Shown piece after piece: positions 13,024 through 34,772 of a stretch of 35,975 bases of DNA. The stretch lies in contig JAFULE010000154.1 in the NCBI GenBank assembly GCA_017483235.1, forward strand, positions 1-35,975, written 5' to 3'. Numbering within the stretch: the stretch's first letter is position 1; each line of letters begins with the position of its first letter. This stretch comes from Faecalibacterium sp. Its GTDB lineage: Bacteria > Bacillota > Clostridia > Oscillospirales > Ruminococcaceae. The notes beneath the pieces are model-generated. The model did not search any database. It was given only the letters and a program-made list of their open reading frames with translations, and was not told the DNA's origin. The position numbers were made by a program, and so were the translations under genes.

Positions 13024-14226
13024 TTACTTTTCTTTGTGCTGCTGCATCAGTTTGATGGCAGAAGCCGCCATAACCGACATGGTAACGGGCAAGGCATCCT
13101 CGTTCAGGTCAAACTTCGGATGATGGCCGCTGTACACCGGCCCTTCGGCCGGGCGGGCACCAAACATATAGAAGGCCGCCGGAATGCTGCGGGCATACCA
13201 GGCAAAGTCCTCGCTGCCGGTGCTGGGCTGGGGGATGACAAAGGTGTTCTGCTCGCCCACCACCTCGCGGGCGGCAGCCAGCACCACCTGCGCCACCTCT
13301 TCGTTGTTGGACAGGCTGGGGAACATGGGCTGACGGTCCAGTGTGCCGGTGCAGCCGTAGATGGCACACACGCTTTGCACGGTTTGCTCCATCAGGGCAA
13401 AGATTTCTTCGCGCACGGTTTCGTCAAAGGTGCGCACCGTGCCGGACAGGGTGGCCTTGGCGGGCAGCACGTTTTTGGTGCCTGGCTCGCCGGCCTGCAT
13501 GCTGCACACCGACAGCACCGCGGGCTGCATGGGGTCCAGCCGGCGGCTGACGATGCTTTGCAGCGCCACCACCGTCTGGCTGGCAGCCACCACCACGTCG
13601 GTGCCGCAGTGGGGGCTGGCGCCATGGGCACCGGTGCCCTCGATGACGATATCGAAGAAATCACCGCTGGCGGTTACCACGCCGCTGCGGGTCATGATCA
13701 CACCCGGCGGCACGCTGGTGGTCTGGTGAGCACCCAGCATATAGTTCACATCCGAAAGGATGCCGCTTTCCATGATCTTTTTGGCGCCGCCGGGGGCGGG
13801 GCCTTCTTCGGCGGGCTGGAACACAAACTTGACGGTGCCGCGCACCTTGTCGCGGTTTTGGCTGAACCACAGGGCGGTGCCCAGCAGCGCCGCCGTATGC
13901 GAGTCGTGCCCGCAGGCATGGCACACGCCGGGGTTCTGGCTGCGATAGGGCACACTTTCGTCCTTTTCATCCTGCATGGGCAAAGCGTCGATGTCGGCGC
14001 GCAGGCCGATGACAGGGCCGGGCTGCTTTCCTTTCAGCACACCGATCACCGCGGTGTCGGCCTCGCAGAAGTTGGTGATCACCTCAAGGCCCATGGCCCG
14101 CAGTTCCTTTTGGATCAGGGCGCTGGTGCGCACCTCGCGAAAGCCCAGCTCGGGGTGGGCATGGATATCGCGCCGCCAGGCAGACACCTGCGGCTGCAGC
14201 TCGGCCATACCGGGCAACAGATTCAT
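13024..14226 (-). CDS. M20D family amidohydrolase (hippurate hydrolase / N-acyl-amino acid amidohydrolase-like)
   Basis: RRDIHAHPELGF, LRADIDALP, HACGHD, FQPAEE, GSEDF, HHPKF motifs. Confidence 0.92.
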   Translation of the reverse strand: MNLLPGMAELQPQVSAWRRDIHAHPELGFREVRTSALIQKELRAMGLEVITNFCEADTAVIGVLKGKQPGPVIGLRADIDALPMQDEKDESVPYRSQNPGVCHACGHDSHTAALLGTALWFSQNRDKVRGTVKFVFQPAEEGPAPGGAKKIMESGILSDVNYMLGAHQTTSVPPGVIMTRSGVVTASGDFFDIVIEGTGAHGASPHCGTDVVVAASQTVVALQSIVSRRLDPMQPAVLSVCSMQAGEPGTKNVLPAKATLSGTVRTFDETVREEIFALMEQTVQSVCAIYGCTGTLDRQPMFPSLSNNEEVAQVVLAAAREVVGEQNTFVIPQPSTGSEDFAWYARSIPAAFYMFGARPAEGPVYSGHHPKFDLNEDALPVTMSVMAASAIKLMQQHKEK

Positions 14227-15051: not shown

Positions 15052-16065
15052 TTATTTATTCTGTTTGCGGTAACGGGCAGCTTCGATAAAGGCGGCGCCT
15101 TCCCACATGGCATCGTACACCACATCCAGCATACGGCTGTAATGCAAAAAGGCGTGCATAATACCGGGGTAGGTGCGCAGTTTGGTCATGTGGCCCCGGT
15201 TTTGCAGCATGGTGTGCAGGGTAAGCGAACCGGTCAGGCAGGGGTCGGCCTCGCCGCAGCAGACAAAGGCGGGCGGGATGCCCCAGCCCAGATCGTTGTT
15301 CATGGTGCAGTCGTAATAGGGGCTGTCCAGCTGATCTTCACGGATGAAGCTGGCGGTGTAGTTGTTCATATACATTTTGGGCCGGTCGAGAATGATCTCG
15401 TCAAACTCGTTGCCCCACATGCGCACCGCCACGCCGTCGCGCATGCCGTAGTTGCCGTAGAACAGCAGCAGTGCGGTGATATAGCTGTTGTCGCCGTACT
15501 CATTGCGCAGATACAGGGCGGTGGCCATTGAGCTGTTGGCACCGGCCGAATCGCCGGCCAGCGAAATATCATTGCCGTCCAGGCCGTATTCCGCGCCGTG
15601 CTCATGGAAATAGCGCACGGTGTGCACCACCTCCAGCACCTGACTGGGGAACACCGCCTCGGGGGCCAGCTTATAATTTACGCCCACCACACAGCAGCCG
15701 GTAATATCGGCCAGCAGCCGCATGATGCGGCCATGGGTGTCGTTGTCGCCGCAGGTATCGCCGCCGCCGTGGGTAAACACCAGAATGGGCAGGTTGGCTT
15801 CGGTGCTGGGGTAGTGCAGCCGCACATTCACCTTGCCGTTGGGGCCGCCGGGAATGTCAAAATCCTCGGTTTTGGCCATCTGGGGGCCGCCTTGGTTCCA
15901 CCAGCTGCGCTCTTCCTTGTACCATTCGCGGTATTCTTGAATGCCCTGCAGCGAATCCCACGCGCCGCGCATGGGGTTTTCCTTTTTCCAGTTTTCCACC
16001 CGCTGCACCACTTTACGCATCTGCGGGGTGATCATAGCCAGATAATCGTATTTGTTTTCAACCAT
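15052..16065 (-). CDS. aes: Acetyl esterase Aes homolog, copy C (HSL family)
   Basis: HGGG, GDSAG nucleophile elbow, ADP and HAFLHYSRM triad motifs; THGRIMRLLA and ESPYY-like DSPYY as in E. coli Aes. Confidence 0.85.
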   Translation of the reverse strand: MVENKYDYLAMITPQMRKVVQRVENWKKENPMRGAWDSLQGIQEYREWYKEERSWWNQGGPQMAKTEDFDIPGGPNGKVNVRLHYPSTEANLPILVFTHGGGDTCGDNDTHGRIMRLLADITGCCVVGVNYKLAPEAVFPSQVLEVVHTVRYFHEHGAEYGLDGNDISLAGDSAGANSSMATALYLRNEYGDNSYITALLLFYGNYGMRDGVAVRMWGNEFDEIILDRPKMYMNNYTASFIREDQLDSPYYDCTMNNDLGWGIPPAFVCCGEADPCLTGSLTLHTMLQNRGHMTKLRTYPGIMHAFLHYSRMLDVVYDAMWEGAAFIEAARYRKQNK

Positions 16066-16149
16066 GGGGGTACTCCTTTGTGAAAAAAGGCGGCCGCCGG
16101 TTGAACCGCCAAAGGGCAGTTGCAGCGGCGGCCGCACAATAGCCTGATC

Positions 16150-17163
16150 TTACTTGTTCTTACGGATGTAACGGGCACGCTCCCAGAAGTCGACACACTC
16201 CTGAATGGAATCGTAAACCATATCCAGCATACGGCTGTAGTGCAGGAAGGCGTGCATGATGCCCTCGTACACGTGCAGCTCTACGGTGTGGCCATGCTCG
16301 TACAGCATTTCGTACAGGCAGACGCAGCCGTCCTTCAGGGGGTCGGCGCCGCCAACGGCGATGAAGGTGGGTGCAATGCCCCAGCTCAGGTCGTTGTTCA
16401 TGGTAACATCGTAGTAGGGGCTGGTCAGCTGATCCTCGCGGATGAAGCTCTTGTTGTAGTTGTTGTGGGCCATCACGGGCTTGTCGAACACCAGCTCGTC
16501 AAACTCGTTGCCCCACAGACGGGTGGAGGTGCCGTCGTTGATGCCGGGCACGGCGTAGTACAGCAGCGCCGCGCTGATGTAGTCGGTCTCGTTGTACTCG
16601 TTGCGCAGGTAGACCATGGTAGCCAGGCTGATGACCGAACCGCCCGAGTCGCCGCACAGGGCGATGTCGTTGCCGTCCAGGCCGTACTCGGCGCCATGCT
16701 CGTGGAAGTAACGGGTCACGGCCACGTTTTCCAGAATCTGGCTGGGGAAGCCGGCTTCGGGGGCCAGCTTATAGTTCACGCCGATGACGCAGGCGCCGGA
16801 CTTGTCGGCCAGAATGCGCATGATGCGGCTGTGGGTGTCGTTGTCACCGCAGACATAGCCGCCGCCGTGGTTGAAGATGATGATGGGCATGCCCTTCTGC
16901 ACCACGGGGTAGTGCAGGCGCACGTTGACCTGACCATGGGGGCCGCCGGGGATCCAGATGTCCTCGGTCTTTTCCATCTGGGGGCCGCCCTCGTTCCACC
17001 AGCTGCGCTCTTCCTTGTACCACTCGCGGTACTCTTCAATGCCTTCGGGGCTGGTCCATTCGCCGCGCATGGGGTTGGTCTTCTTCCACTCTTCCACGCG
17101 CTCGACGACCTTGCGCATCTGAGGGGTGATCTTGTGCATGTAGTTGTACTTATTTACCAGCAT
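16150..17163 (-). CDS. aes: Acetyl esterase Aes homolog, copy B
   Basis: HGGGY, GDSGG, ADPL, HAFLHYSRM. Confidence 0.85.
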   Translation of the reverse strand: MLVNKYNYMHKITPQMRKVVERVEEWKKTNPMRGEWTSPEGIEEYREWYKEERSWWNEGGPQMEKTEDIWIPGGPHGQVNVRLHYPVVQKGMPIIIFNHGGGYVCGDNDTHSRIMRILADKSGACVIGVNYKLAPEAGFPSQILENVAVTRYFHEHGAEYGLDGNDIALCGDSGGSVISLATMVYLRNEYNETDYISAALLYYAVPGINDGTSTRLWGNEFDELVFDKPVMAHNNYNKSFIREDQLTSPYYDVTMNNDLSWGIAPTFIAVGGADPLKDGCVCLYEMLYEHGHTVELHVYEGIMHAFLHYSRMLDMVYDSIQECVDFWERARYIRKNK

Positions 17164-17243
17164 AATAATATCCTCCTGCTGTTTTTTCTGCCCGGGCTTT
17201 TCCAGCGGCCCGGTACAGTTTGTTCCTTGATTGTGCGGGGCGG

Positions 17244-18260
17244 TTACTTGTTTTTCTTGATGTAGCGGGCGCGCTCGATAAAGTCGGCGGCCTCCTGCAG
17301 GGAATCATACACCACGTCCATCATGCGGCTGTAGTGGATGAAGGCGTGCATCACGCCCTCGTAGATGCTCATGCTGACGGTGTGGCCGTGCTCGTACAGC
17401 ATTTCGTACAGGGTCACGCAGCCGTCCTTCAGCGGGTCGGCGTCGCCCACTGCGATAAAGGTGGGTGCGATGCCCCAGCTCAGGTCGTTGTTCATCAGCT
17501 GGTCATAGTAGGGGCTGTCCAGCTGGTCCTCGCTGATCCAGCCGGGGTTGAAGTTTTTATGGGCCATCACCGGCTTGTCGAACACCAGCTCGTCAAACTC
17601 GTTGCCCCACAAACGCACCGAGGTACCGTCCTTCATGGCGCCGCAGCCGGCATAGTACAGCACAACAGCGGTCAGGTAGTCGGTTTCGTTGTACTCGTTG
17701 CGCAGATACAGCATGGTGCTCAGGCAGTGGATGGAACCGGCCGAGTCGCCGCACAGGCTGATGTCGTTGCCATTCAGGCCGTACTGGGCGCCGTTCTGGT
17801 GGAAGTAGCGCACGGTGTGCACCACCTCTTCGATCTGGCTGGGGAAGCGGGCCTCGGGCGACAGCTTATAGTTCACGCCGATGACACAGCAGCCGGTTTT
17901 GTCGGCCAGAATGCGCATGATGCGGCTGTGGGTGTCGTTGTTGCCGCACACATCGCCGCCGCCGTGGCTGTACACCAGAATGGGCATATTCTCCTGCACA
18001 ACGGGGTAATGCAGCCGCACGTTCACCTGCCCGTTGGGGCCGCCGGGGATCCAGATGTCCTCGGTTTTTTCCATCTGGGGGCCGCCCTCGTTCCACCAGC
18101 TGCGCTCTTCGATGTACCACTGGCGGTATTCTTCAATACCCTCCATCGAGTCCCAGCTGCCGCGCATGGGGTTGCCCTTCTTCCACTCCTCCACCCGCTC
18201 GACGACCTTGCGCATCTGAGGGGTGATCTTGTGCAGGTAGTTATACTTGTTGACGATCAT
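17244..18260 (-). CDS. aes: Acetyl esterase Aes homolog, copy A
   Basis: HGGGD, GDSAG, ADPL, HAFIHYSRM; AAGGAGG RBS before ATG 18260. Confidence 0.85.
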   Translation of the reverse strand: MIVNKYNYLHKITPQMRKVVERVEEWKKGNPMRGSWDSMEGIEEYRQWYIEERSWWNEGGPQMEKTEDIWIPGGPNGQVNVRLHYPVVQENMPILVYSHGGGDVCGNNDTHSRIMRILADKTGCCVIGVNYKLSPEARFPSQIEEVVHTVRYFHQNGAQYGLNGNDISLCGDSAGSIHCLSTMLYLRNEYNETDYLTAVVLYYAGCGAMKDGTSVRLWGNEFDELVFDKPVMAHKNFNPGWISEDQLDSPYYDQLMNNDLSWGIAPTFIAVGDADPLKDGCVTLYEMLYEHGHTVSMSIYEGVMHAFIHYSRMMDVVYDSLQEAADFIERARYIKKNK

Positions 18261-18391
18261 GGCAGAGTTTCCTCCTTTTATAATAAAGAAAGCAGTGTTT
18301 CTTTGGTTACCTGTTGTTTTTGATGCAGCGGGCACGCCGCATCCGTTTGGGCACTTGTGTGCACTTTAACGTGAAAACAGCCTTTGATGTT

Positions 18392-19408: not shown

Positions 19409-20701
19409 TCAGGCTTTCAGCGAATTTAGCAAATCGGGCAGGAACGTGGAGATTTCGGGCACAAAGCCAATGATGACCAGCGAGATGATCAGGCCCAGCA
19501 GGAAGGGCAGGGCCGCCTTGACGATTTTGTCCATCGAAAGGCCGGTCAGTGACGAAGCCACAAACAGGTTGGCGGCCACCGGCGGGGTGACGAAGGCGAT
19601 GGCCAGGGCAACCACCATGACGATGCCGAAGTGCAAGGGGTTCAGACCCACCTGTGCACCAACCGCCAGCAGAACCGGCGAGAAGATGACGATGGCGGGG
19701 GTGGTCTGGATGAACATGCCAATGATGAACAGGATCACATAGATGATGCTCATGATGACATAGTAGTTGGTGGAGATAGAGGCGAAGAACTCGCTGATGG
19801 CGGTGGTCACGTTCATGTAGGCAAACACGGTGCCCAGCGCGGTGGCGGGGGCCACGGTAAGCATCAGGCCGCCGTTGAAGGTCATGTTATCGGCAAAGAT
19901 CTTCCACAGGCTTTTCAGGGTAAAGGCCTTGTAGATGAAGCAGCCCACAAACAGGCCGTACACGGTGGCCACCACAGCAGCCTCGGTGGCGGTGAAGATA
20001 CCGCTGTAAATGCCGCCCAGAATGATGACCGGCATCAGAATGGCCCACTTGGCATCCCACAGGGCAGAAAGGAATTCCTTCATCGAGAACTTCTGGGTGC
20101 CCTTCCAGCCGTTTTTCTTGCTGATAAAGTAGTTAAACAGCATCAGGATCACGCCGATCAGCAGGGCGGGGATGAAACCAGCCATGAACAGATCGCCGAT
20201 GGACTCGTTGTTGGTAACAGCATAGATGACCATGGGGTAGCTGGGCGGCACGATGATGCCCAGACCGCCGGCGCAGGCCACCAGACCGGCTGCATAGTAC
20301 TTATTGTAGCCAGCACGGATCATTTCGGGGATCATGATGGCGCCAATGGCGGCACAGGTGGCAGGGGCCGAGCCAGACACCGCGCCAAAGAACATGCAGG
20401 CCAGAACGGTGACCATGCCCAGCGAGCCGGTAACGTTGCCCACGATGCTGTTGGCCAGACGAACCAGACGCTTGCTGAGGCCGCCCACGTCCATGATGGT
20501 GCCCGAGATCATAAAGAACGGAATGGCCAGCATGGTAAAGCTGCCGGCGCCGGAATACAGGCACTGCAGAATGGAGGCCATCGAGGTGGAAACACCGCCG
20601 CTGAGGATGACCAGCATGCAGGGGATGATCAGGCACAAGCCAATGGGCACGCCGATCATCATCAGAATTGCCAGAGAGCCAAACAAAATTGCAACATGCA
20701 T
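19409..20701 (-). CDS. dctM: TRAP transporter large permease (DctM)
   Basis: AIPFF, FGAVSGS, IVPPS, FTATEAA, TPPVAANL motifs. Confidence 0.95.
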   Translation of the reverse strand: MHVAILFGSLAILMMIGVPIGLCLIIPCMLVILSGGVSTSMASILQCLYSGAGSFTMLAIPFFMISGTIMDVGGLSKRLVRLANSIVGNVTGSLGMVTVLACMFFGAVSGSAPATCAAIGAIMIPEMIRAGYNKYYAAGLVACAGGLGIIVPPSYPMVIYAVTNNESIGDLFMAGFIPALLIGVILMLFNYFISKKNGWKGTQKFSMKEFLSALWDAKWAILMPVIILGGIYSGIFTATEAAVVATVYGLFVGCFIYKAFTLKSLWKIFADNMTFNGGLMLTVAPATALGTVFAYMNVTTAISEFFASISTNYYVIMSIIYVILFIIGMFIQTTPAIVIFSPVLLAVGAQVGLNPLHFGIVMVVALAIAFVTPPVAANLFVASSLTGLSMDKIVKAALPFLLGLIISLVIIGFVPEISTFLPDLLNSLKA

Positions 20702-21279
20702 CAGACTTTGCCCTCCTTTTCACGCAGCGCGGCAGCCTCGGCTTCCAGCGCTTCAATGTCGATGGCAGGCTTGGAGGCGCCCAGCTCTTTGGGGGATTCC
20801 TTGCTGAGGCGGATGATGTTGAACACCAAGCGCACGCAGGCCAGCACCAGCATGACCGGAACGATCATGTACAGCAGGTTGCGGGGGATGCGCAGCAGCG
20901 AGGTTTTGCTTTTGCCCAAAGAGGGGATCAGCTTATCGACATAAATATAAGCAACGTACAGGTTGAAGAGGATAAAGATCACATCGCTGATCATCAGCAT
21001 GACCTTTTTGGCCACAAAAGGCACCGCTTCCAGCAAAGCGTCGATGCGCAGATGCTTGCGCTTGGTAACTGCCGAAGATACGCCGCAGTACACCATGCCA
21101 ACGAACATGGCGCTGGACAGCTCTTCGGTCCAGGTAAAGGAGTGGTTCAGCACAAAGCGGCTGAACACCTGCAGGGTCAGCAGGATCATGATCAGGATAA
21201 ACAGCACCGTGCCGATGTACTCTTCAAAGTTGTTCAGCAGGTGGATCGCAAGTTCTTTCTTGCTTTTCTTCTCTTGCAT
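20701..21279 (-). CDS. dctQ: TRAP transporter small permease (DctQ)
   Basis: Four TM segments, QVFSRF, WTEEL, HLRID; stop/start overlap with dctM. Confidence 0.93.
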   Translation of the reverse strand: MQEKKSKKELAIHLLNNFEEYIGTVLFILIMILLTLQVFSRFVLNHSFTWTEELSSAMFVGMVYCGVSSAVTKRKHLRIDALLEAVPFVAKKVMLMISDVIFILFNLYVAYIYVDKLIPSLGKSKTSLLRIPRNLLYMIVPVMLVLACVRLVFNIIRLSKESPKELGASKPAIDIEALEAEAAALREKEGKV

Positions 21280-21314
21280 AGAAAGAGATCTCCTTTCTTA
21301 AGGAAGTAAAATCG

Positions 21315-21352
21315 GTCTGCCGCAAAGCAGGCATTCCCGCTTTGCGGCAGAC
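21315..21352. other. Intercistronic hairpin after dctP (likely mRNA stabiliser or attenuator)
   Basis: GTCTGCCGCAAAGC / GCTTTGCGGCAGAC 14-bp stem without a U-tract. Confidence 0.6.
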
Positions 21353-21366
21353 AGTGGGGAACGCTT

Positions 21367-22446
21367 TTACTTGGCGGCGTCAACGGTGGCCATCAGTTCG
21401 TTCCACTTGTCGTCGCCCATCGACTTCTTGATGGTTTCCCAGGTGGGGGCAACCGCATCCTGGAAGGCGGCCATTTCGGCGTCGCTCAGCTCGTAGAACT
21501 TCATGCCGGCAGCTTCCAGCGTAGCCTGGGCTTCCTTCTCGGCCTCGGCCAAACGGGCGCGGCTCTGCTCGGTGGCGGCCTTGTTGGCGGCTTCCACAGC
21601 GGCCTTCTGCTTGTCGCTCAGGCTGTTGTAGAAGTCCACATTCATAAAGAACAGGGTGGTGGTGTAGCTGTGGCGGGTCAGGGTGCAGTACTGCTGCACC
21701 TCGTAGTACTTCTGCGAGTTGATGGTGGTCAGGGGGTTCTCCTGTGCGTCGACCATCTTGGTCTGCAGGGCGCTGAACAGCTCGCTGATGGACATGGGGG
21801 TAACCGAGCAGCCCAGATCCTCGAAGCTGGCGATCTGCACCGCGTCGGTCATGGTGCGGATCTTCAGGCCCTTCATATCGGCGGGGCTCTTGATCTCGCC
21901 CTTGGAGTTGGTCACATGGCGGTAGCCGATGTCGGCGTAGCACAGGGGGATAACATTCACTTCGTCCAGCACCTGCTGCTTCATGCCGTCGCCGAACTCG
22001 CTGTCCATCACGGCGTGCACCAGGCTGAAGTCGGTGTACAGATAGGGCACGTTCAGGGCGGCGAAGGCGTCGGTGTAATCGCCCCAGGAGCCGGTGTTCA
22101 GCTGGGACATTTCAAACGAACCGGTCAGCAGGCCGGACAGGGTGGCTTCGGTGCCGCTGGCCAGGGTGCTGCCGGGGTAGATCTCGATGGTGATGCTGCC
22201 GCCGGATTCCTTTTCACAGGTTTCTTTCCAGGTGTTGATGGCGATGGACATGGGGGTGTTGTTGCCCTTGATCTCGGCCTCGCTGACCGAGCTGGCCCAC
22301 TTGATGGTTACGGGCTTTTCTTCCACGGTACCGCCGCCGGAGGCTGCGGGCGCAGAGGAGGAAGAGCCGCCGCAGGCGGCCAGAACACCGGTAGCGGCCA
22401 CAGCGCCTGCGGCCATCAGGAACGAACGACGAGAGATCTTCTTCAT
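21367..22446 (-). CDS. dctP: TRAP substrate-binding lipoprotein (DctP)
   Basis: MKKISRRSFL leader with LAAC lipobox; GYRH, GLKIRT (conserved carboxylate-binding Arg), DAQENP. Confidence 0.93.
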   Translation of the reverse strand: MKKISRRSFLMAAGAVAATGVLAACGGSSSSAPAASGGGTVEEKPVTIKWASSVSEAEIKGNNTPMSIAINTWKETCEKESGGSITIEIYPGSTLASGTEATLSGLLTGSFEMSQLNTGSWGDYTDAFAALNVPYLYTDFSLVHAVMDSEFGDGMKQQVLDEVNVIPLCYADIGYRHVTNSKGEIKSPADMKGLKIRTMTDAVQIASFEDLGCSVTPMSISELFSALQTKMVDAQENPLTTINSQKYYEVQQYCTLTRHSYTTTLFFMNVDFYNSLSDKQKAAVEAANKAATEQSRARLAEAEKEAQATLEAAGMKFYELSDAEMAAFQDAVAPTWETIKKSMGDDKWNELMATVDAAK

Positions 22447-22538
22447 AACAATTCTCCTTCTTACTTGCAAATGCGAGCTTTGCTTTGCATTGATTTGTTG
22501 AACCGTACTTAACCCGGCCGCTCGGTAACAGTTGCCTA

Positions 22539-23711: not shown

Positions 23712-24902
23712 TTGAAGATCACGAGTGTAGACGTATTTGAATGCAAGCCTACCAAGATGAACGACCGCGTTGTAGTAATGCGTGTAAATACCGACGAAGG
23801 TATTTCCGGCTACGGCGAAGTTGGTCTTGCCTACGGCAAAGCGCATTACGCCGCCGTTGGCATTGCCCGTGACTATGGCGAAATTCTGATCGGCCGCGAC
23901 CCCATGCAGGTGGAGGCTACCTGGGAGCATATCTTCCGTTCCACCTTCTGGGGCATGGGCGGCGGCACCGTTATCAACGCCGGCATGTCTGCTGTGGATA
24001 CTGCCCTGTGGGACATCCGCGGCAAGGCCCTGAACAAGCCCGTGTACGAGCTGCTGGGCGGCAAAACCAATCCCGAGCTGCGCGCCTATGCCAGCCAGCT
24101 GCAGTTTGACTGGGCCGACGAGCACCGCTGCCTGACCGAGCCCGAGCAGTATGCCGAAGCCACCCGCAAGGCCATGGCCGAAGGCTACACCGCCATTAAG
24201 GTAGACCCCATCGGCGTGACCATGGAGGCCAAGTGGGCCCGCGAAGCCATGAACCCCAACTGGCGGATGCGCGGCGTGCTGAACGACAAGATGCTGAAGA
24301 TTTGCTACGATCGCGTGGCAGCCATGCGCGAAGCCGGCGGCCCCGATCTGGACATCATCATCGAGGTGCACTCTTACACCGACACCAACACCGCCATTCA
24401 GCTGGCACAGGTGCTGGAACCCCTGAACATCTACTATCTGGAAGAGCCTGTCCATCCGCTGAACGTCGAGTCCTTTGTTGAAATCCGCAAAAAGACCAAC
24501 ATTCCTCTGGCCACCGGCGAGCGTACCTACACCCGCTGGGGCTTCCGCGAATTCCTCGAAAAGCGTGCGCTGCAGGTCATTCAGCCCGACCTGTGCATCA
24601 CCGGCGGCATCAGCGAAACCAAGAAGATCTGCGACATGGCCAACATCTACGACTGCGGCGTGCAGCTGCATGTCTGCGGCGGCCCCATCTCCACTGCGGC
24701 AGCCCTGCAGGTGGAAGCGGTCATTCCCAACTTCCTGATCCACGAAGTGCACGAAGGCGCCATCAAGAAGGATATGCGCGCCATGGGTAAGTACGACATT
24801 ATGCCGGTAAGCGGTGAGTACATCGTGCCCGACCGCCCCGGTATCGGTCAGGAACTGAGCGAAAAGGCCATGGCCGAAGCCACCGTGTACACCATCAAGT
24901 AA
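23712..24902 (+). CDS. Enolase superfamily, mandelate racemase subgroup acid-sugar dehydratase (galactonate dehydratase-like)
   Basis: SAVDTALWDIRGK, KVD, IIEVH, EEP, TGER, QPD, LHVCGGP, PGIG motifs; TTG start after GAAAGG. Confidence 0.9.
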   Translation: MKITSVDVFECKPTKMNDRVVVMRVNTDEGISGYGEVGLAYGKAHYAAVGIARDYGEILIGRDPMQVEATWEHIFRSTFWGMGGGTVINAGMSAVDTALWDIRGKALNKPVYELLGGKTNPELRAYASQLQFDWADEHRCLTEPEQYAEATRKAMAEGYTAIKVDPIGVTMEAKWAREAMNPNWRMRGVLNDKMLKICYDRVAAMREAGGPDLDIIIEVHSYTDTNTAIQLAQVLEPLNIYYLEEPVHPLNVESFVEIRKKTNIPLATGERTYTRWGFREFLEKRALQVIQPDLCITGGISETKKICDMANIYDCGVQLHVCGGPISTAAALQVEAVIPNFLIHEVHEGAIKKDMRAMGKYDIMPVSGEYIVPDRPGIGQELSEKAMAEATVYTIK

Positions 24903-27880: not shown

Positions 27881-27919
27881 AACACCCCCGCCGCAGGCAA
27901 TGCCTGCGGCGGGGGTGTT
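27881..27919. terminator. Bidirectional terminator between ZIP and the glycyl radical enzyme
   Basis: AACACCCCCGCCGCAGGCA-A-TGCCTGCGGCGGGGGTGTT. Confidence 0.8.
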
Positions 27920-27954: not shown

Positions 27955-30363
27955 TTACAGGTTGTGGGTAGTGCGGTTGATGACCTCTTCCTGCATGGAG
28001 GCGTTCAGCTGTACAAAGTAGGCGCTGTAGCCGGCAATGCGGATGACCAGATCACGGTGCTCTTCGGGCTTTTCGCGGGCGGCCAGCAAGGTTTCGAGGC
28101 CAACCACGTTGAACTGCACATGCTTGCCGCCGTTGGTCAGGTAGGTGCGGATCATGGCAGCCAGCTTGCCCATATCCTCTTCGGTCTTGAGGGCCGAGGG
28201 ATGGAACTTCATGTTCAGCAGGGTAGCCTGGAAGGGATCCTGATCGATGCGCATGGCGCTCTGCATCACGGCCAGAGGGCCGTTGGTGTCCATGCCCTGC
28301 ATGGGGCTCATGGTGCCGTCGGCCAGCAGGGTGCCGGCCTTGCGGCCGTCGGGGGTAGCGCCGGTCAGCAGGCCGCCGGGCTGGTGGCTGGTGATCGAGA
28401 TGCCGCAGGGCACGGTGGTGCCGCCGGTGATGGTTTTGAGGGTGGGCACAAAGTCGGTAAATACCTTGTAGCAGCGGGCCACGATCTCGTCCACATAGGG
28501 GTCGTTGTTGCCAAACTTGGGGGCCGCCAGGAAGTCCTGACGCATCTCTTCATAGCCGACCCAGTCTGCTTCCAGTGCGTCGTACAGCTGCTTCAGGGTG
28601 TACTTCTGTTCGTCGAAGCACAGCTTCTTGATGGCGGCGAAGCTGTCGCCCACGTTCACCATACCGATGGTGCATACCGAAGCGGTGTTGTCGAAGGGGA
28701 TGTCGTGGCGGCACCAGATGTCCTTGCCGCTTTCGATGCCCTTGTACATCAGGGCGCTGCGCAGCGGGTCGGGCAGAACCTCCTGGGTTACCTTCAGCTC
28801 TACGTTATTGCGCTCGCCCACGATGGAAACACAGTACTTGAACTGCTTTTCCCATGCGGCAAACATCTCTTCGAAGGTCTTAAACTGGGTAAAGTCGCCG
28901 GTGGGCAGGCCTGCCTGCTCGCCGTTCTTGACGTTGATGCCGTTGTGGCGGAACAGGTCGAAGATGACGGTCATGATGGTCATGGGCACCGGGCCGGTAC
29001 GGCTCTTGCCGGGCAGGTTGGCGTCCAGACAGCCGGTGATGCCAAAGTCGCGGGCATCTTCCAGCGAAACACCGTGCATGGTGAAGAACTCGGTGTAGCT
29101 TTCATCACTGATAAAGGCGGGCATCGACAGGCCGGCCTTGATGCACTCTACGCCCTTCATCAGCAGATCGGCGGGGGTGCTGGGGGCCACACGCAGGGTG
29201 ATGGTGTGGTGCGGGGTACGGGTGATCAGGGCCGCATCCAGCATCATGTAGCTCAGATCGTTGGTGGCGTCGGTGCCGTCGGGCTTGACACCGCCAATGA
29301 TGAAGTTATGCCACTTGGCAAAACCGGCATTCTTTTTGCGGTTGTTCTTGCCGGAGGTGCGGTTCAGCTCCATGTCCTTCAGGCGCATGCAGCACAGCAG
29401 CTCCAAAGCTTCCTCGCGGGTGATGCGGCCGGCTTCCAGATCGGCCTTGTAGTAGGGGTACATGTACTGGTCGAAACGGCCGCCGGGCAAGGTGGTGCTG
29501 GGGCTGAGCATCAGGAACTGGAACCAGAAGCACTGGATGGCCTCGCGGAAGGTGCGGGGCTTGTTGCGGGGGATCCAGCGGCAGGTTTCGGCAATGGTTT
29601 CCAGCTCGGCCTTGCGGGTGGGGTCTGCTTCCTTTTCGGCCATTTCGGCAGCCAGAACCGCGTAACGGTCAGACAGGGTGTTGATGGCCTCAAACGCCAT
29701 GATCACAGCGCGATAATAACGGAACTTGTCCACGCCCTCGGGATCGTCGAAACGCACCTGGCGCTGGCACTCCTTGGCCTGCTCGATCAGGGCCAGGGTG
29801 CCGTTTTCAAGGATCTTGGTGTAGTCCACCATCAGCAGCACCAGGCTGGGGCCAAGGCCCAGACCGCTCTGGGCATAGCCGCCGCCCACGCCGCGGCCCT
29901 GGCTCTTGTCTTTCCAGGGGGGCAGCACCAGGCCGGCCTTCAGCAGCTTGAGGATGCGCTCGTCCTCTTCTTCGTAGAAGATGTCGCCCTGCATGCCGAT
30001 CTGGGTGGCGGGGTCATGGTTCTTGTTCAGCTCCTGCAGGTCAATCTGATCCTGCTCGTCCATCAAAAAGCCGTCCTCGATCAGGCTGTCGATCTCGTCC
30101 TGGCTCCACAGGCCGTAGTTGGGGTCAATTTCCAGACCCATCGGCTTGGACGCGCCCAGGCCAACGATCAGCTCGTCGTCGGCAATGGCAATGGGCATAC
30201 GCTCGGTGTAGGCCTTCAGCATTTTGCCACGCTGCACAATGGGGGCATCGTGCTTGTTTTTGGCCAGAACATCCGCCGTAATGCGGTACTTTTCGATGCA
30301 GATGGGGTAATGATCCACCACTACACGCTTCTTGATTCGTTCAATACGATCGTACATCGACAT
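27955..30363 (-). CDS. Glycyl radical enzyme (PFL2/dehydratase-like superfamily), unknown substrate, 802 aa
   Basis: C-terminal RIAGYSAYF Gly loop, HVQFNV, PKFGNND, ATPDGR, GRFDQ, DELIVG; single-Cys loop TGCLD; AAGGAG RBS before ATG 30363. Confidence 0.93.
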   Translation of the reverse strand: MSMYDRIERIKKRVVVDHYPICIEKYRITADVLAKNKHDAPIVQRGKMLKAYTERMPIAIADDELIVGLGASKPMGLEIDPNYGLWSQDEIDSLIEDGFLMDEQDQIDLQELNKNHDPATQIGMQGDIFYEEEDERILKLLKAGLVLPPWKDKSQGRGVGGGYAQSGLGLGPSLVLLMVDYTKILENGTLALIEQAKECQRQVRFDDPEGVDKFRYYRAVIMAFEAINTLSDRYAVLAAEMAEKEADPTRKAELETIAETCRWIPRNKPRTFREAIQCFWFQFLMLSPSTTLPGGRFDQYMYPYYKADLEAGRITREEALELLCCMRLKDMELNRTSGKNNRKKNAGFAKWHNFIIGGVKPDGTDATNDLSYMMLDAALITRTPHHTITLRVAPSTPADLLMKGVECIKAGLSMPAFISDESYTEFFTMHGVSLEDARDFGITGCLDANLPGKSRTGPVPMTIMTVIFDLFRHNGINVKNGEQAGLPTGDFTQFKTFEEMFAAWEKQFKYCVSIVGERNNVELKVTQEVLPDPLRSALMYKGIESGKDIWCRHDIPFDNTASVCTIGMVNVGDSFAAIKKLCFDEQKYTLKQLYDALEADWVGYEEMRQDFLAAPKFGNNDPYVDEIVARCYKVFTDFVPTLKTITGGTTVPCGISITSHQPGGLLTGATPDGRKAGTLLADGTMSPMQGMDTNGPLAVMQSAMRIDQDPFQATLLNMKFHPSALKTEEDMGKLAAMIRTYLTNGGKHVQFNVVGLETLLAAREKPEEHRDLVIRIAGYSAYFVQLNASMQEEVINRTTHNL

Positions 30364-30473
30364 AGAACAACACTCCTTTTTATAAAATAGAAATTTGATC
30401 CTGTATCTTTCAGCCGCCCTGCATTGCAGTTCGGGCAGCTTTGTTCCCATTTTTCTGGAAATACTGGAAATAT

Positions 30474-30502
30474 TTGAAAAAACAGCCGCATCGTGTTACA
30501 AT
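30474..30502 (+). promoter_or_regulatory. Promoter of the PucR-family gene
   Basis: TTGAAA, 17 bp spacer, TG-T-TACAAT. Confidence 0.6.
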
Positions 30503-30605: not shown

Positions 30606-32222
30606 ATGGTCACACTGGCAATGCTGCTGAACGGTTTGCACGCCCGCATCGGGCAGGTATATCCCGGCAGCGACGAACATCATACCTATCAGGGCATCTA
30701 TCTGGTGGACGAACACATCGTCTGCGAGCCGGGCATGGTGTACGTCGGCGACGGCGAAAGCCTGTATCGGCTGCTGCTGCGGGGGCCTTTGCCCCAAGGC
30801 TGCGCTTTGTTTGCCGCCGGCGACCCGAAAGGTCTTTTGGCAAACGCCCCGCGGCAGGGGGTGCCGGTGGTGGTTACCACGCTGGATCTGATCCCCTTGT
30901 ACAACACGCTGTTCCGTACCCTGTCGCAATGCTACGGCTGGCACAGCCACCTGCAGGCCGAAAGCCAGCACAGCCTGCGCAATCTGCTGCTGGCGGCCAC
31001 CCGCGAATTTGATTTTTCGGTACGCCTTTTGTCGGCCGGCCTGCAGCACATGGGCCAAAGCGTGCTGGAGGGCGAGGATGATCTGCTGGCCCTGCCGCAG
31101 GAAAACCCCGACCGCAACAGTCAGGCCCAGCTGGAACAGCTGCTGCATCAGCTGCAAAACGACCCCAGCTTTCCTTCCATCGTCACCACACCCCGGGTAG
31201 ACGGCTACATCTACGCCCTTGCGCCGGTGCAGCAGCGGGGCACCGTGCTGGGCTATCTGTTTGCCTGCAGCCGCGGGCGCAACAGTCTTTTGCACAACAT
31301 GCTGCTGGTGCTGGCCGAAGCGGTAAAAGAGCTGATGCTGCAGGCGCAGGCCGAAACCGGCGAAGCCGACAGCTTTCAGCTGCTGGCGGTCAACTTTCTG
31401 GGCGATGCGCCCGAAGATCTGGACACCCTTGACCTGCGGCTGCGCCAGCTGGCCAAGCGCCCCAAGCGGTTTTTGCGCAGTCTGGTCATCCGGCAGCTGA
31501 GCGACGACGGCCATCCCCTGCCGGCACTGCCCAAGGCACTGCGCGCGCTGTATGGCGAAGTAAAGCAGATGTTCCCCTGTGACAACGTGGCCATGCTGCC
31601 CGACTGCGTGTATGTGATGCTGAGCGACACAGTGCCCAACGCCCCCATCACGGTGACCCACAATCAGGATTTTCACGCCCTGCTGGAGCGCCACCACGCC
31701 TACGCCATGGTGACCAACCCCAGCCAGTGGCTGCGCGGGGTACGGGTGCTGTACCGGCAGGCCTATCAGCTTTTGCCTGCGGCAGTGGCCATTCGCTATC
31801 AGAAGGAAAAAGAGCGCCGCTGCCTTCGGTTTGACCGCTATGCCCCCTACTACGCCATCCACCTGTGCGAGCAGGCCAGCCGCAAAGCCATGGGGGTAAA
31901 CGATATTTTGTACCTGTGCCACGCTTCGGTGCTGACCGTTACCCGGTACGACCGCGCCTTCAACAGCAACCTGCGGGATGTGCTGTTCACCTATCTGATG
32001 AACGACCGCAGCATCAGCGAAACCAGCCGCCAGATGTTCATGCACCGCAACACCACCATTTATAAGCTGAACAAGATTCAGGAGCTGATCGGCGATGACC
32101 TGACCAACCCCTACACCCGGCACCACATGGTGTTCAGCTGCATGATCATCCGCTATGTAGAGGAATATCTGCACCGCACGGTGGATCTGCCCCCGCTGGA
32201 AAACAATCTGCTGCGCAAATAA
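30606..32222 (+). CDS. PucR/CdaR family transcriptional activator
   Basis: C-terminal YDRAFNSNLRDVLFTYL...SISETSRQMFMHRNTTIYKLNKIQEL (HTH_30); GAGG RBS before ATG 30606. Confidence 0.88.
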   Translation: MVTLAMLLNGLHARIGQVYPGSDEHHTYQGIYLVDEHIVCEPGMVYVGDGESLYRLLLRGPLPQGCALFAAGDPKGLLANAPRQGVPVVVTTLDLIPLYNTLFRTLSQCYGWHSHLQAESQHSLRNLLLAATREFDFSVRLLSAGLQHMGQSVLEGEDDLLALPQENPDRNSQAQLEQLLHQLQNDPSFPSIVTTPRVDGYIYALAPVQQRGTVLGYLFACSRGRNSLLHNMLLVLAEAVKELMLQAQAETGEADSFQLLAVNFLGDAPEDLDTLDLRLRQLAKRPKRFLRSLVIRQLSDDGHPLPALPKALRALYGEVKQMFPCDNVAMLPDCVYVMLSDTVPNAPITVTHNQDFHALLERHHAYAMVTNPSQWLRGVRVLYRQAYQLLPAAVAIRYQKEKERRCLRFDRYAPYYAIHLCEQASRKAMGVNDILYLCHASVLTVTRYDRAFNSNLRDVLFTYLMNDRSISETSRQMFMHRNTTIYKLNKIQELIGDDLTNPYTRHHMVFSCMIIRYVEEYLHRTVDLPPLENNLLRK

Positions 32223-32275: not shown

Positions 32276-33394
32276 TCAGCCGATCACGACCTCGTCGCCA
32301 TCCACGGTGAATTTGGGCTCGATGCCCTGGTCCAGGGTGATCTCACGCATATACTCCACGATCTCGGTAAAACGGGGATCGTCCGGGGTAAGGGTGACGG
32401 GGGTGGCGTCCTTGCCGAGCTGCACCGGCACAAAGCTGACCTTCTGGATCTTTTTGTCGTCGATGACGCACTTGATGAACAGCGACTTGTAGCTGTCCTC
32501 GGGCATCTGGCGCTTTTTCTTCTTCATGTCGGGGTTCAGCGCGGCAATATCCTGATGAGACTTGGACTCGGTCAGATCGCCCTTGCCCTCGAAGAAGCGG
32601 CCGGGCTCTTCCAGCGCAAAGTTGGCCATGCTGTACACGATCACCTTGCCCTTGTACACTTCGATGGGCTTGAGGATGTGGGTGTGATGGCCCAGAATGA
32701 TGTCGGCACCGGCATCAATGGCAAATTTTGCGGCGTAACGCTGGTAATAGGCCAGGGTTTTGGGGATGAAATGGATGCCCCAGTGGAAGGACACCATCAG
32801 AATATCCACCTGCGGGCGCAGGGCGGCAATGTCGGCCAGCATGGCATCCAGATCGTCCGGATGAGGCCAGCTGAACAGACGCACCGGGGTTTCGGGCTGG
32901 TCGTGTTCTTTGGGCACCGCAGCGCTGATGCCGCGCAGCGGGGCGCAGCCGGGCCGTTCTTCGGTGGCCCAGTAGTCCTGCGGAAGAATGCTGTTGTAGC
33001 CAAGGAAGCCGATCTTGGTGCCGTCCAGATCCACGATCACCGGCTTGCGGGCTTCGAAGATATCGGCACCGGCGCCAATGGTCTGAATGCCCTGCTCGTG
33101 CAGCAGATCCAGCGTTTCAAAAAAGGCGGGGCGGCCCCAGTCCATGCAGTGGTTGGTGGCAAAGCTGATCACGTCGTAGCCTGCGCGGCGGATGGCGCCG
33201 GCGTTTTCAGGCTTGCAGCGCATGGGCAGGCGGCACTGGGCCGCGGGGGTACCGGTGGAGGCAATGCAGGGCTCCAGCTGGCCGAACAGCAGGTCGGCCT
33301 GTGCCAGCGAAGCGCGCACGCCGTCGAACATTTCGTCGGCATTGGGGCGGTTGGGGCCAACATCGCCGGTGGCGATAAAGATCTTTTTGCTCAT
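32276..33394 (-). CDS. CapA/PGA_cap family metallophosphoesterase-fold protein, no signal peptide
   Basis: ATGDV, GQLE, FATNHCMDWG, SFHWG, GHHTH, YSMANF motifs; AAAGGAG RBS before ATG 33394. Confidence 0.85.
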   Translation of the reverse strand: MSKKIFIATGDVGPNRPNADEMFDGVRASLAQADLLFGQLEPCIASTGTPAAQCRLPMRCKPENAGAIRRAGYDVISFATNHCMDWGRPAFFETLDLLHEQGIQTIGAGADIFEARKPVIVDLDGTKIGFLGYNSILPQDYWATEERPGCAPLRGISAAVPKEHDQPETPVRLFSWPHPDDLDAMLADIAALRPQVDILMVSFHWGIHFIPKTLAYYQRYAAKFAIDAGADIILGHHTHILKPIEVYKGKVIVYSMANFALEEPGRFFEGKGDLTESKSHQDIAALNPDMKKKKRQMPEDSYKSLFIKCVIDDKKIQKVSFVPVQLGKDATPVTLTPDDPRFTEIVEYMREITLDQGIEPKFTVDGDEVVIG

Positions 33395-33476: not shown

Positions 33477-34772
33477 TCAGATAGCGAATACGCCCACCAG
33501 GGACAGAACTGCGCAGACGACAGCGCCCAGAATAGCCAGAACGATGCACTTGGTAAACAGACCTTCGGCGATCTTCTGGTCGGGGCAGTTGGCGATCATG
33601 ATCGCGCCGCCGGTGGAGAAGGGAGAGATGGCAGTGGCCGAAGCGCCAACCGCAACCGCAACCAGCAGAGGAACGGGGTCGATGCCGGCAGCAGCCGCGT
33701 AGGGAATGGCCAGAGCGCCCAGCATGGGGAATACGGCGTTGATGGCGCCGGAGAACAGGCTCATGAAGCCGCCCAGCAGGGCCATGATGGCGCCCATCAT
33801 CACGGGCGAGACATTCTCGCTCAGCAGGCCGCCCAGATAATCGGTAACGCCGGCAGCAGAGGCAACACCCATCAGGGTGCAAACGCCGCCAACCATGATG
33901 ATGGTGTTCCAGGGCACACCCTTAACGATGGCATCCTTTTCCTTGCCAAGGCCCAGCACGGTGCAGACAAACACGCCGATGATGGCCAGCATCTGGATGT
34001 CCAGCGCAGAGGAAGCCTTCTTCAGGATGGGGCTGCTGATGAACAGCTTGAGCAGGTTGGGGGCAAGGGCCAGCACGGCGATAACAGCGATGACGACCAG
34101 ATTCTTTTTCTGAACTGCGGTGAAGGGTTCGGGCTTTTCGATCTGGATCTCCTTGATCTTGTAGCCCTTGGTGAGGATCCAGAACAGCAGGAACAGCACC
34201 ATGGTGAAGACAAAGAAGCCCAGGCATACCTTGTAGGCAGCGGCTTCGCCCATGCCGGGCAGCCAGCCTTCGGTGGTAGCCTTAACAACCGAGCCCTGAA
34301 CAGCCCAGGGGAAGAAGGTGCCCACAGAGCCGCCGAAGCAGACCACAACGGCGCACAGCCAGGGGTTCATGCCGGCGGGAGCGGCAACGGTAAAGGTCAG
34401 AACAGCCAGAATGGTGTTGCAGGCCGGCGGGGGTGCACCCATGGCGCCGATGATGCCGCCGATGGCCAGCAGGGCAAAGGGAATGATGTAGGGCTTATGA
34501 CGCAGTGCGTACACCACGTTCTGTGCCACCTTGGGCAGGGTGCCGTTGAACACCGCAAACGAGAAGAACATGGTGATGGTCATCAGCTGGAAGACGGTGC
34601 TGGTGGGCCAGCAGGCAACCACCTCTTTCACCTTCATGCCCTGTACCCAAACGCCGATGATATAGGCAAAGATCATGGCGGGAATGCCCAGGTTGACCTT
34701 GAGCACATAGCTGAGCGCAACCGATACAAACACGGCTGCAAGAACGACCCACAGTAAGATTTCAACTGACAT
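33477..34772 (-). CDS. Ion-transporter superfamily permease (SLC13 / MatC dicarboxylate-carrier-like)
   Basis: Many TM segments, VNLGI, NGTL, VPWNTIIMVGGV, ISPFSTGGA; AAAGGAG RBS before ATG 34772. Confidence 0.82.
   Translation of the reverse strand: MSVEILLWVVLAAVFVSVALSYVLKVNLGIPAMIFAYIIGVWVQGMKVKEVVACWPTSTVFQLMTITMFFSFAVFNGTLPKVAQNVVYALRHKPYIIPFALLAIGGIIGAMGAPPPACNTILAVLTFTVAAPAGMNPWLCAVVVCFGGSVGTFFPWAVQGSVVKATTEGWLPGMGEAAAYKVCLGFFVFTMVLFLLFWILTKGYKIKEIQIEKPEPFTAVQKKNLVVIAVIAVLALAPNLLKLFISSPILKKASSALDIQMLAIIGVFVCTVLGLGKEKDAIVKGVPWNTIIMVGGVCTLMGVASAAGVTDYLGGLLSENVSPVMMGAIMALLGGFMSLFSGAINAVFPMLGALAIPYAAAAGIDPVPLLVAVAVGASATAISPFSTGGAIMIANCPDQKIAEGLFTKCIVLAILGAVVCAVLSLVGVFAI

Follow-up and report, generated by a model that had tools for sequence, protein, structure and literature searches.

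The glycyl radical enzyme gene and its place in the superfamily

We analysed a 35,975-nt stretch of Faecalibacterium sp. DNA (assembly GCA_017483235.1, contig JAFULE010000154.1), called the window throughout, which encodes an oxygen-sensitive glycyl radical enzyme (GRE) with an aspartate in its cysteine loop, in place of the catalytic glutamate usual among characterised relatives. The gene has the following features.

27955..30363, minus strand: GRE gene, 802 amino acids (aa) with no internal stop; its product falls in subclade A of the C-x-D clade described below
29023..29034, minus strand: Cys loop G444-C445-L446-D447, in which Cys445 is by homology the thiyl residue and Asp447 stands at the Glu position of C-x-E
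28027..28041, minus strand: Gly loop RIAGY; Gly778 (28030-28032) is the radical site by homology
30373..30379, minus strand: ribosome-binding site ahead of the GRE start codon, read directly from the sequence

An earlier note on this DNA had described an intact GRE with the loops RIAGY and GCLD, and both loops read as claimed in the 802-aa open reading frame (ORF). With Ile replacing Val, the protein matches the whole glycyl-radical fingerprint given in the available part of a 2026 GRE review (PMC13450708). Pfam assigned it PF02901 (PFL-like, 510 bits) and PF01228 (Gly_radical, 103 bits), both far over cut-off. An AlphaFold2 model built from a 119-sequence alignment had a mean pLDDT of 95.1 and a pTM of 0.94, and matched solved GRE structures with template-modelling (TM) scores of 0.87-0.92 at 23-33% identity. 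This confirms that the window GRE is an intact member of the PFL-like GRE superfamily (IPR004184). It carries a single Cys and not the Cys-Cys pair of pyruvate formate-lyase, and scored 103 bits against TIGR01255, whose cut-off is 994. A longer ORF starting at 30450 was rejected in favour of the start at 30363 because homologues begin near 30363 and the ribosome-binding site lies there.

We found that the aspartate two residues after the catalytic Cys (Cys+2) is shared by all close relatives. GCLD is carried by 119 of 121 sequences in a set made up of the query with its 120 best homologues (57-90% identical), and GCMD by the other 2. Both Asp codons are used in 57 C-x-D ORFs (GAC in 39, GAT in 18). 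Contigs of two further studies (X3, X5) span the Cys loop without a gap, with 10 and 9 differing letters whose positions are only partly shown, and a contig of study X2, possibly the source study, spans it with 0 differing letters. Asp447 is present in 47/52 and Cys445 in 52/52 diverse clade members, a set below 70% identity that was drawn from 270 sequences picked with the clade profile and is therefore partly circular. Asp at Cys+2 occurs in all three subclades. Because 121/121 close homologues and 47/52 diverse members carry it, we regard C-x-D as a genuine feature. The homologue alignment, the two codons and the independent contigs led us to reject it as a strain or sequencing variant of C-x-E, an outcome that the earlier note had said would undo its proposal. 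Literature searches, whose coverage excludes most subscription journals, found no published work on a C-x-D GRE, and the motif is absent from the sections covered of the GRE review (PMC13450708).

Several other GREs with unusual loops or lengths were seen alongside. P0252 is a C-x-D GRE outside the clade that groups with HPAD and IAD-like rows (97-99 SH-aLRT), which together with the clade puts Asp at Cys+2 on at least two separate branches. In the basal relative P0150 an Ala replaces the loop Cys and the Gly loop is unusual, and the basal relatives P0137 and a Novosphingobium plasmid protein (L206:11926-14421) have a C-L-G loop; these may be non-catalytic or unusual GREs. Loci L128 and L129, from Desulfobacula-family genomes, hold tandem C-x-E GREs of about 990-1000 aa, where 800-900 aa is usual.

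The window GRE scored under the cut-off of all NCBIfam GRE models (score/cut-off): PFL2-3 520/678, CutC 486/1050, NF048011 475/1000, HypD 458/1100, indoleacetate decarboxylase (IAD) 428/1100, HpfG 418/1000 and HPAD 396/1150. In a FastTree phylogeny of 259 sequences, made after dropping 15 near-duplicate HypD rows, the query lay in an 89-tip clade with support 1.0. Asp at Cys+2 and Arg at position 455 each occur in 83 tips of this clade, and in 5 and 7 of the 170 outside tips, respectively. IQ-TREE (36 rows) supported the C-x-D clade (SH-aLRT 99) and set it apart from the eliminases (branch support 96-97), from the HPAD/PAD-like proteins (99) and from BSS (100). One run gave no resolution of the order among the four branches and the other a support of 50; the careful search is unfinished.

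We verified the rows that served as references in the trees either by NCBIfam cut-off (HPAD, CutC, HypD, sulfonate group) or by PDB match (BSS, 1009 bits). Rows called 'PAD-like' were labelled only by C-x-Q...W spacing, for which we assumed the Cys residue number, and 'PD-like' rows by similarity. The set was without true IAD, PAD and AAD sequences, and YbiW, PflD and HplG were not included as verified rows; an IAD reference sought by the NF033718 cut-off in 251 genomes of the class gave no match. PAD itself has Gln484 and Trp495, according to the sections covered of PMC13450708. Judged by these sequence placements, the clade is an uncharacterised GRE lineage, a separate deep branch within the superfamily that belongs to no described class. 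The suggestion of an uncharacterised C-x-D lineage was thus borne out: the window GRE clusters with no characterised GRE at high identity, and solved structures are at most about 33% identical to it.

Residues of the predicted active site

Two features outside the loops bear on the substrate.

28999..29001, minus strand: Arg455, located in barrel strand 6, a likely equivalent of the fumarate-binding Arg508 (BSS) or Arg492 (MASS)
29311..29340, minus strand: Arg342-x-Lys344...Lys350-Trp351, a cap-helix/strand-3 segment that is the most conserved basic stretch of the clade

Among the 52 diverse members, Arg342 is found in 52, Lys/Arg344 in 46, Lys/Arg350 in 49, Arg455 in 44, Trp351 in 50, His385 in 45, Leu176 in 42 and Ile655 in 44. 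The unusual basic segments listed in the earlier note are all present, though just some of their residues, such as Lys/Arg350, Trp351 and His385, are kept across the clade. Arg335 of the LNRT segment is subclade-specific (24/52) and TPHH sits where other GREs carry a Q/E-P pair, so we confine the 'basic pocket' to Arg342, Lys344, Lys350 and Arg455, whose side chains are predicted to face inward. The Asp of HypD that aligns with Lys350 is one that we take to bind substrate. Pocket residues vary among paralogues, which suggests that these may act on a set of related substrates.

With the conserved helix that follows strand 6 as anchor, Arg455 lines up gap-free with an Arg of a BSS homologue that corresponds to Arg508 of 4PKC, and the strand-bulge-strand pattern of the AlphaFold2 model fits this register. 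BSS Arg508 and MASS Arg492 bind a fumarate carboxylate, in the part of PMC12358834 that was covered, and Arg455 likely matches Arg508. One reading of this residue is that the enzyme forms a C-C bond to a succinyl unit, as BSS does, or cleaves one in the reverse sense, with MmgE/PrpD epimerase and CoA-transferases acting downstream. Asn at the BSS Asn615 position in 31/52 diverse members would agree with this, as would a neighbouring MmgE protein nearest to a substituted-succinate epimerase, since an unknown epimerase is invoked for MASS in the covered text of PMC13450708 and PMC12358834. However, BSS and MASS carry Ser at Cys+2 and bind fumarate in the Cys-loop oxyanion hole (PMC12358834, same sections), where the clade carries Asp. 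BSS Gln707 aligns to Ile655, the clade is not on the BSS branch, and a look through the 419 short ORFs that lie on the same strand as, and no more than 700 bp from, 121 clade GRE ORFs showed no conserved small ORF of the BSS beta/gamma kind. We therefore consider succinyl chemistry of this kind quite unlikely.

Aligned with glycerol dehydratase, the window GRE has Leu176 for His164, Thr290 for His281, Asp447 for Glu435 and Ile655 for Tyr640. His164 is the leaving-group acid that protonates the leaving hydroxyl (covered part of PMC13450708), and therefore this acid appears to be missing in the window GRE. The loss bears on a possible 1,2-eliminase or isomerase reaction on a hydroxylated (poly)carboxylic acid, in which Asp447 would deprotonate a hydroxyl, in the role that Glu has in C-x-E enzymes, and give an aldehyde- or keto-acid product. 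Such a reaction is favoured by the acid retained at Cys+2, and by the fact that CutC and the dehydratases of glycerol and propanediol come out closest in both sequence and fold. Genes near clade GREs also fit it: aldehyde dehydrogenase in 2/95 loci, iron alcohol dehydrogenase (Fe-ADH) in 3/95, and esterases, sugar-acid dehydratases and glycolate-oxidase-like FAD/CCG genes. Yet all eliminases and isomerases treated in the sections covered of the 2026 review keep C-x-E (PMC13450708), and by this measure the query stands apart from GD, PD, CutC, HypD, HpfG, YbiW, PflD and HplG. With Leu and Thr in place of His164 and His281, a position outside the eliminase branch (96-97 SH-aLRT) and Fe-ADH no commoner than beside other GREs (4/127), we consider an eliminase or isomerase possible but doubtful.

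The earlier note had proposed a poly-anionic substrate: a dicarboxylate, sulfonate or phosphate ester. The carboxylate part of this proposal is supported by Arg455, Lys350 and the neighbouring genes. A sulfonate or phosphate-ester lyase would suit several conserved basic residues and a CapA neighbour with a metallophosphoesterase fold of the calcineurin-like type, and a good leaving group would need no protonating His. In the sulfolyases IslA, IseG and HpsG, though, two Arg and one Gln anchor the sulfonate (PMC13450708, sections covered), and these positions are Pro172, Leu176 and Cys653 in the window GRE (reference L107, above the NF048011 cut-off), which leaves the sulfonate option unsupported. 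The phosphate-ester option gained no positive support of its own. The carriers annotated nearby also belong to carboxylate families, and such a lyase is very improbable.

The decarboxylase IAD, which the earlier note had given as C-x-Q, is in fact C-x-E (Cys500/Glu502), and the proposal for its Glu502 is that, within an otherwise hydrophobic pocket, it returns a proton to the thiolate by way of a water molecule during a Kolbe-type decarboxylation (available text of PMC13598205). IAD thus sets a precedent: a GRE can have an acid at Cys+2 although its substrate bears no hydroxyl. In the window GRE, Ile655 and Ile657 of strand 8 with Trp351 of strand 3 form a hydrophobic set resembling the IAD pocket, mapped by spacing and not against an IAD sequence. 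The position of the phenol-binding Glu637 of HPAD is Cys564.

Gene surroundings, paralogues and activase

The region around the GRE gene holds the following features.

27881..27919, either strand: 19-bp hairpin in the gap where the GRE and ZIP genes converge, a likely bidirectional terminator, partly picked up computationally
30474-30502, plus strand: promoter-like site in the divergent GRE/regulator gap (10/12), consensus match only
30567-30540, minus strand: second promoter-like site in the same gap (9/12), consensus match only
30606..32222, plus strand: PucR/CdaR-type regulator, divergent from the GRE gene; same family in 27/53 clade loci of at least 9 kb
32276..33394, minus strand: CapA (PGA_cap) family metalloenzyme, putative epimerase or hydrolase
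33477..34772, minus strand: MatC-type dicarboxylate carrier, in an operon with CapA

Given the hairpin as a bidirectional terminator, the GRE gene is likely monocistronic. Promoter-like sites in the GRE/regulator region are a weak signal, with 5 found against 2.5 +/- 1.3 in shuffles. The MatC-CapA operon (34772-32276) converges on the regulator, and the order from the GRE 5' end to MatC is preserved on one contig of an independent run. At 8 further loci, CapA copies next to subclade-A GREs share 71-82% identity with the window CapA, and the MatC copies of 5 further subclade-A loci share 62-70% with the window MatC. CapA matched one protein only in the PDB, the 8GQ9 series, which we take to be the epimerase MslH, with a weak NF038314 match; the CapA fold is presumably that of a calcineurin-like metallophosphoesterase. 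The ESM Atlas gave family names only for CapA and for the URO-D-like neighbour described below, and a literature search for CapA hydrolases found no paper, most subscription journals being outside its coverage.

Elsewhere in the window lies a mandelate-racemase-family (galactonate-dehydratase-like) gene (23712-24902, plus strand), a homologue of which (L018:1686-2882) stands beside the MatC-CapA-PucR-GRE module of L018; the family occurs in 2/95 loci. The window also has three tandem Aes-like acetyl esterases (15052-18335, minus), an M20 amidohydrolase (13024-14226, minus), a TRAP transporter (19409-22470, minus) and a FadX-like CoA-transferase (5002-6573, minus) whose family recurs beside clade GREs. 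These could be part of the same acid-scavenging lifestyle.

Neighbours were counted in loci of at least 9 kb around 53 clade and 50 other GREs. We found MatC in 25/53 clade loci against 0/50 others, any MatC/CitMHS/Tct carrier in 28/53 against 0/50, PucR in 27/53 against 0/50, CapA in 19/53 against 0/50, MmgE/PrpD in 7/53 against 0/50, CoA-transferase I in 5/53 against 0/50 and an activase in 27/53 against 48/50. These counts describe association and are not a statistic, the loci being non-independent kin. The 26 subclade-A loci have PucR in 14, an activase in 12, MatC in 11, CapA in 9 and MmgE in 2. For the MmgE neighbour the closest match is iminodisuccinate epimerase (E 4e-39), followed by cis-aconitate decarboxylase; a literature search for a GRE associated with MmgE/PrpD gave no paper, again with most subscription journals outside its coverage. 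A wider set of 95 clade loci holds URO-D-like genes in 8, PHB-depolymerase-like esterases in 7, PrpF in 3, Fe-ADH in 3 and aldehyde dehydrogenase in 2. The PrpF neighbour is nearest to 3-methylitaconate isomerase (E 2e-107).

Two further groups of genes recur at these loci. A URO-D-fold protein, of a methyltransferase or decarboxylase family, is present in 8/95 clade loci and 0/127 other loci. A trio of TPR, DUF4037 and DUF4125 genes flanks clade GREs (8-11/74 loci). The trio also occurs at two unrelated GREs, where it adjoins the activase genes. Examples are as follows.

L014:8108-9235, L035:4317-5471, L220:18133-19188 and L227:1330-2316: URO-D-fold protein
L054:4050-11388, L072:1806-13514 and, on contig C128 of the window's own genome, L001:6592-9095: TPR, DUF4037 and DUF4125 trio

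DUF4125 and DUF4037 genes head an operon downstream of the GRE chaperone gene bssE (PMC12583861, in the part covered), and the trio may be a general GRE accessory module. As a substrate clue it was rejected because it also flanks unrelated GREs.

Some neighbours would fit decarboxylation or cleavage of plant aromatic acids (aryl-propionates, aryl-lactates, ferulate dimers) freed by neighbouring esterases. PadR regulators are present in 3 loci and PHB-depolymerase-like esterases in the 7/95 already mentioned; a HadBC-like dehydratase occurs with CoA-transferase III in some loci and, together with PucR, on contig C243 of the window's own genome; a benzaldehyde-dehydrogenase-like gene follows one subclade-A GRE; and the hydrophobic pocket positions agree. 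Against this stand Cys564 at the phenol-binding position of HPAD, and the conserved basic residues and MatC/Tct, MmgE and PrpF neighbours, which suggest more than one carboxylate. We regard an aromatic substrate as decidedly improbable.

The window's own genome (80% complete) encodes two more C-x-D GREs, on contigs C128 and C101, at 46-47% identity and each with its own MatC and PucR. No GRE activase was found in the window. The genome has one activase over the TIGR02494 cut-off, on C101 beside a paralogue, and its 28 best matches among the fetched activases (itself excluded, repeats counted) all lie beside clade GREs. Genomes G042-G044 and G373 have 3-4 clade GREs and one long-type activase, and G370 (1.9 Mb) has 14 clade matches (13 C-x-D, 1 C-x-E), nine of them on one contig, with one activase found. 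Paralogues therefore appear to share one activase, at 3 GREs to 1 in the window's own genome and 14 to 1 in G370; because the genomes behind these counts are mostly incomplete metagenome-assembled genomes, we infer this sharing rather than observe it.

The G370 array consists of nine C-x-D GREs in tandem on one 38-kb contig (L219/L220, G370:C66:1-38491), interspersed with LysR regulators, aldehyde/alcohol dehydrogenases, MatC and a URO-D-like gene. The genome also has three glycolate-oxidase-like FAD/CCG gene sets, two in the array (L219/L220) and one at L222. Genomes G364, G365 and G389 (those of L016, L017 and L048; 2.0-2.6 Mb) each yielded 24-32 first-look GRE candidates; with only 2-6 clade members each, they are possible GRE specialists.

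We also considered that the enzyme might be catalytically dead, or a mere partner of its paralogues, with Asp marking lost function. The lack of an activase in the window, the occurrence of subclade A alone in just 1 genome picked for it (G359) and broken copies at L023, L029 and L049 would agree with that. However, Cys445 is kept in 270/270 and Gly778 in 269/270 clade-profile sequences, and Asp in all three subclades. Among 37 genomes picked as homologue carriers, 27 had at least 2 clade matches at E 1e-120, 9 had one and 1 had none, and the nine with a single match make an obligate hetero-oligomer of paralogues unlikely. A dead enzyme is thus hardly credible, and the window GRE is very probably active in a reaction not described before. 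The broken or fragmented subclade-A genes (L023:980-3005, L029:3088-4050, L049:8007-9497) reflect assembly error or decay; two of the three adjoin an intact subclade-B gene.

The clade is large and occurs widely in the guts of animals and in sediments. Among 40 relatives of the window's own genome (24 in the genus), none had a clade-level match, the best being 32-36% over long stretches, which suggests a patchy and probably mobile trait. The five best holders of the gene are gut metagenomes (3), a metagenome (1) and a coded organism (1), with no RNA records among the listed holders; the best match in plasmid records is 38% identical and unannotated. Cultured carriers of the clade are Youngiibacter fragilis, Hominifimenecus microfluidus and Clostridium sp. 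chh4-2.

Proposed reaction and comparison with known glycyl radical enzymes

The carboxylate carriers, the relatives of MmgE and PrpF, and Arg455 and Lys350 lead us to think that the substrate is probably an imported, branched or unsaturated di- or tricarboxylate. Itaconate, aconitate and substituted-succinate types are candidates; quinate, tartrate, tricarballylate and diferulate were set aside as named substrates for want of specific evidence. For the reaction we tentatively favour radical decarboxylation of this acid. A Kolbe-type decarboxylation fits best because Cys+2 is acidic while the leaving-group acid is missing and small-subunit genes were not found, and because the acid is kept (47/52) as in HPAD and IAD, unlike BSS. 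The grouping of the C-x-D protein P0252 with HPAD and IAD-like rows also speaks for this reading.

In the scheme that we propose, the genes would be induced through the PucR-type regulator and the acid would enter by MatC, and its stereochemistry or double-bond position would be adjusted by CapA, MmgE/PrpD or PrpF/Mii-type enzymes. The single C101 activase would act in trans to generate the radical on Gly778. A thiyl radical at Cys445 would then oxidise the carboxylate held at the Cys loop, with Arg455 and Lys350 holding the second carboxylate, and Asp447 would reprotonate the thiolate, as proposed for Glu505 of HPAD and Glu502 of IAD. CO2 would depart, and the stabilised (for example allylic) carbon radical would regain hydrogen from Cys445. 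The shorter acid might be exported, or reduced by way of a CoA-transferase and an acyl-CoA dehydrogenase with electron-transferring flavoprotein; the own genome has such a set on contig C113 (CoA-transferase, AcrC-like acyl-CoA dehydrogenase, electron-transferring flavoprotein), as do some loci.

Several observations weigh against decarboxylation of a di- or tricarboxylate. The best matches by sequence and fold are eliminases, and an aldehyde product would better suit the aldehyde/alcohol dehydrogenases that accompany a few paralogues. MmgE is present in just 2/26 subclade-A loci, PrpF was seen beside other subclades only, and the zero counts for the other GRE loci are inflated because the profiles were seeded from clade loci and many control loci are near-duplicates. 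Arg is lacking at position 455 in 8/52 diverse members. Because a larger alignment places the gap elsewhere, the register of Arg455 with Arg508 hangs on gap placement, and we treat the correspondence as inferred. FastTree joined the clade and the decarboxylases (0.984), but IQ-TREE did not reproduce this and so we do not count decarboxylase ancestry as support. All four known GRE decarboxylases act on aryl-acetates, according to the sections covered of PMC13450708.

Each GRE branch characterised so far has yielded a new anaerobic reaction, and, according to the 2026 review (PMC13450708, sections covered), entire GRE clades are still without experiments. The present clade breaks the C-x-E rule of all characterised eliminases and isomerases, and our analysis narrows the problem to a substrate class, three residues, one activase and cultured carriers, which makes it a good testable lead for new anaerobic chemistry. 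The known activase cross-reactions are between close homologues and the question of specificity is open (PMC13450708, same sections); if true, the sharing of one activase by 3-14 paralogues that are 40-50% identical would bear strongly on that question. In its widest form, which we regard as rather unlikely, the clade would be a fourth deep PFL-like GRE lineage and the first radical decarboxylases for non-aromatic di-/tricarboxylic acids (itaconate, aconitate, tricarballylate, substituted-succinate), with up to 14 paralogues per activase, and would underpin how uncultured rumen and gut bacteria with small genomes gain energy from plant organic acids.

Among known systems the query is most like the glycerol/propanediol dehydratases and CutC (1R8W, 5I2A, 5FAU, 9F3W), at 422-445 bits, TM about 0.92, VIA Z of 47-49.5 and a root-mean-square deviation of 1.6-1.7 over about 768 residues of the query model. 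Like them it is a single-subunit GRE with one catalytic Cys. It differs in being 31-33% identical, in Asp for Glu at Cys+2, in its separate tree branch and, for the glycerol/propanediol dehydratases, in Leu, Thr and Ile at the positions of His164, His281 and Tyr640.

With HPAD (2YAJ) and IAD the query shares an acid at Cys+2, hydrophobic pocket positions and a similar strand-8 motif, I-S-x-S/T-x-H-x-P, and these enzymes are the model for the mechanism that we propose. Yet it is about 100 residues shorter than HPAD, whose Glu637 position is Cys/Asn in the clade; it falls far below the NCBIfam cut-offs of both, has extra basic residues and is not on their branch with support. No small-subunit gene of the decarboxylase kind was found among the short ORFs next to clade GREs.

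BSS (5BWE/4PKC) and MASS (9O8U) resemble the query in an Arg early on strand 6, probably in equivalent register, and differ in C-M-S for its C-L-D, in the Gln707 that is Ile in the query, in identity (26-30%) and in branch. Finally, the sulfolyases IslA (7KQ3), IseG (5YMR) and HpsG (6LON) have in common with the query a strand-3 pocket Trp and, as we propose for it, an anionic substrate, whereas the query lacks all three of their sulfonate anchors and carries the C-x-D loop.

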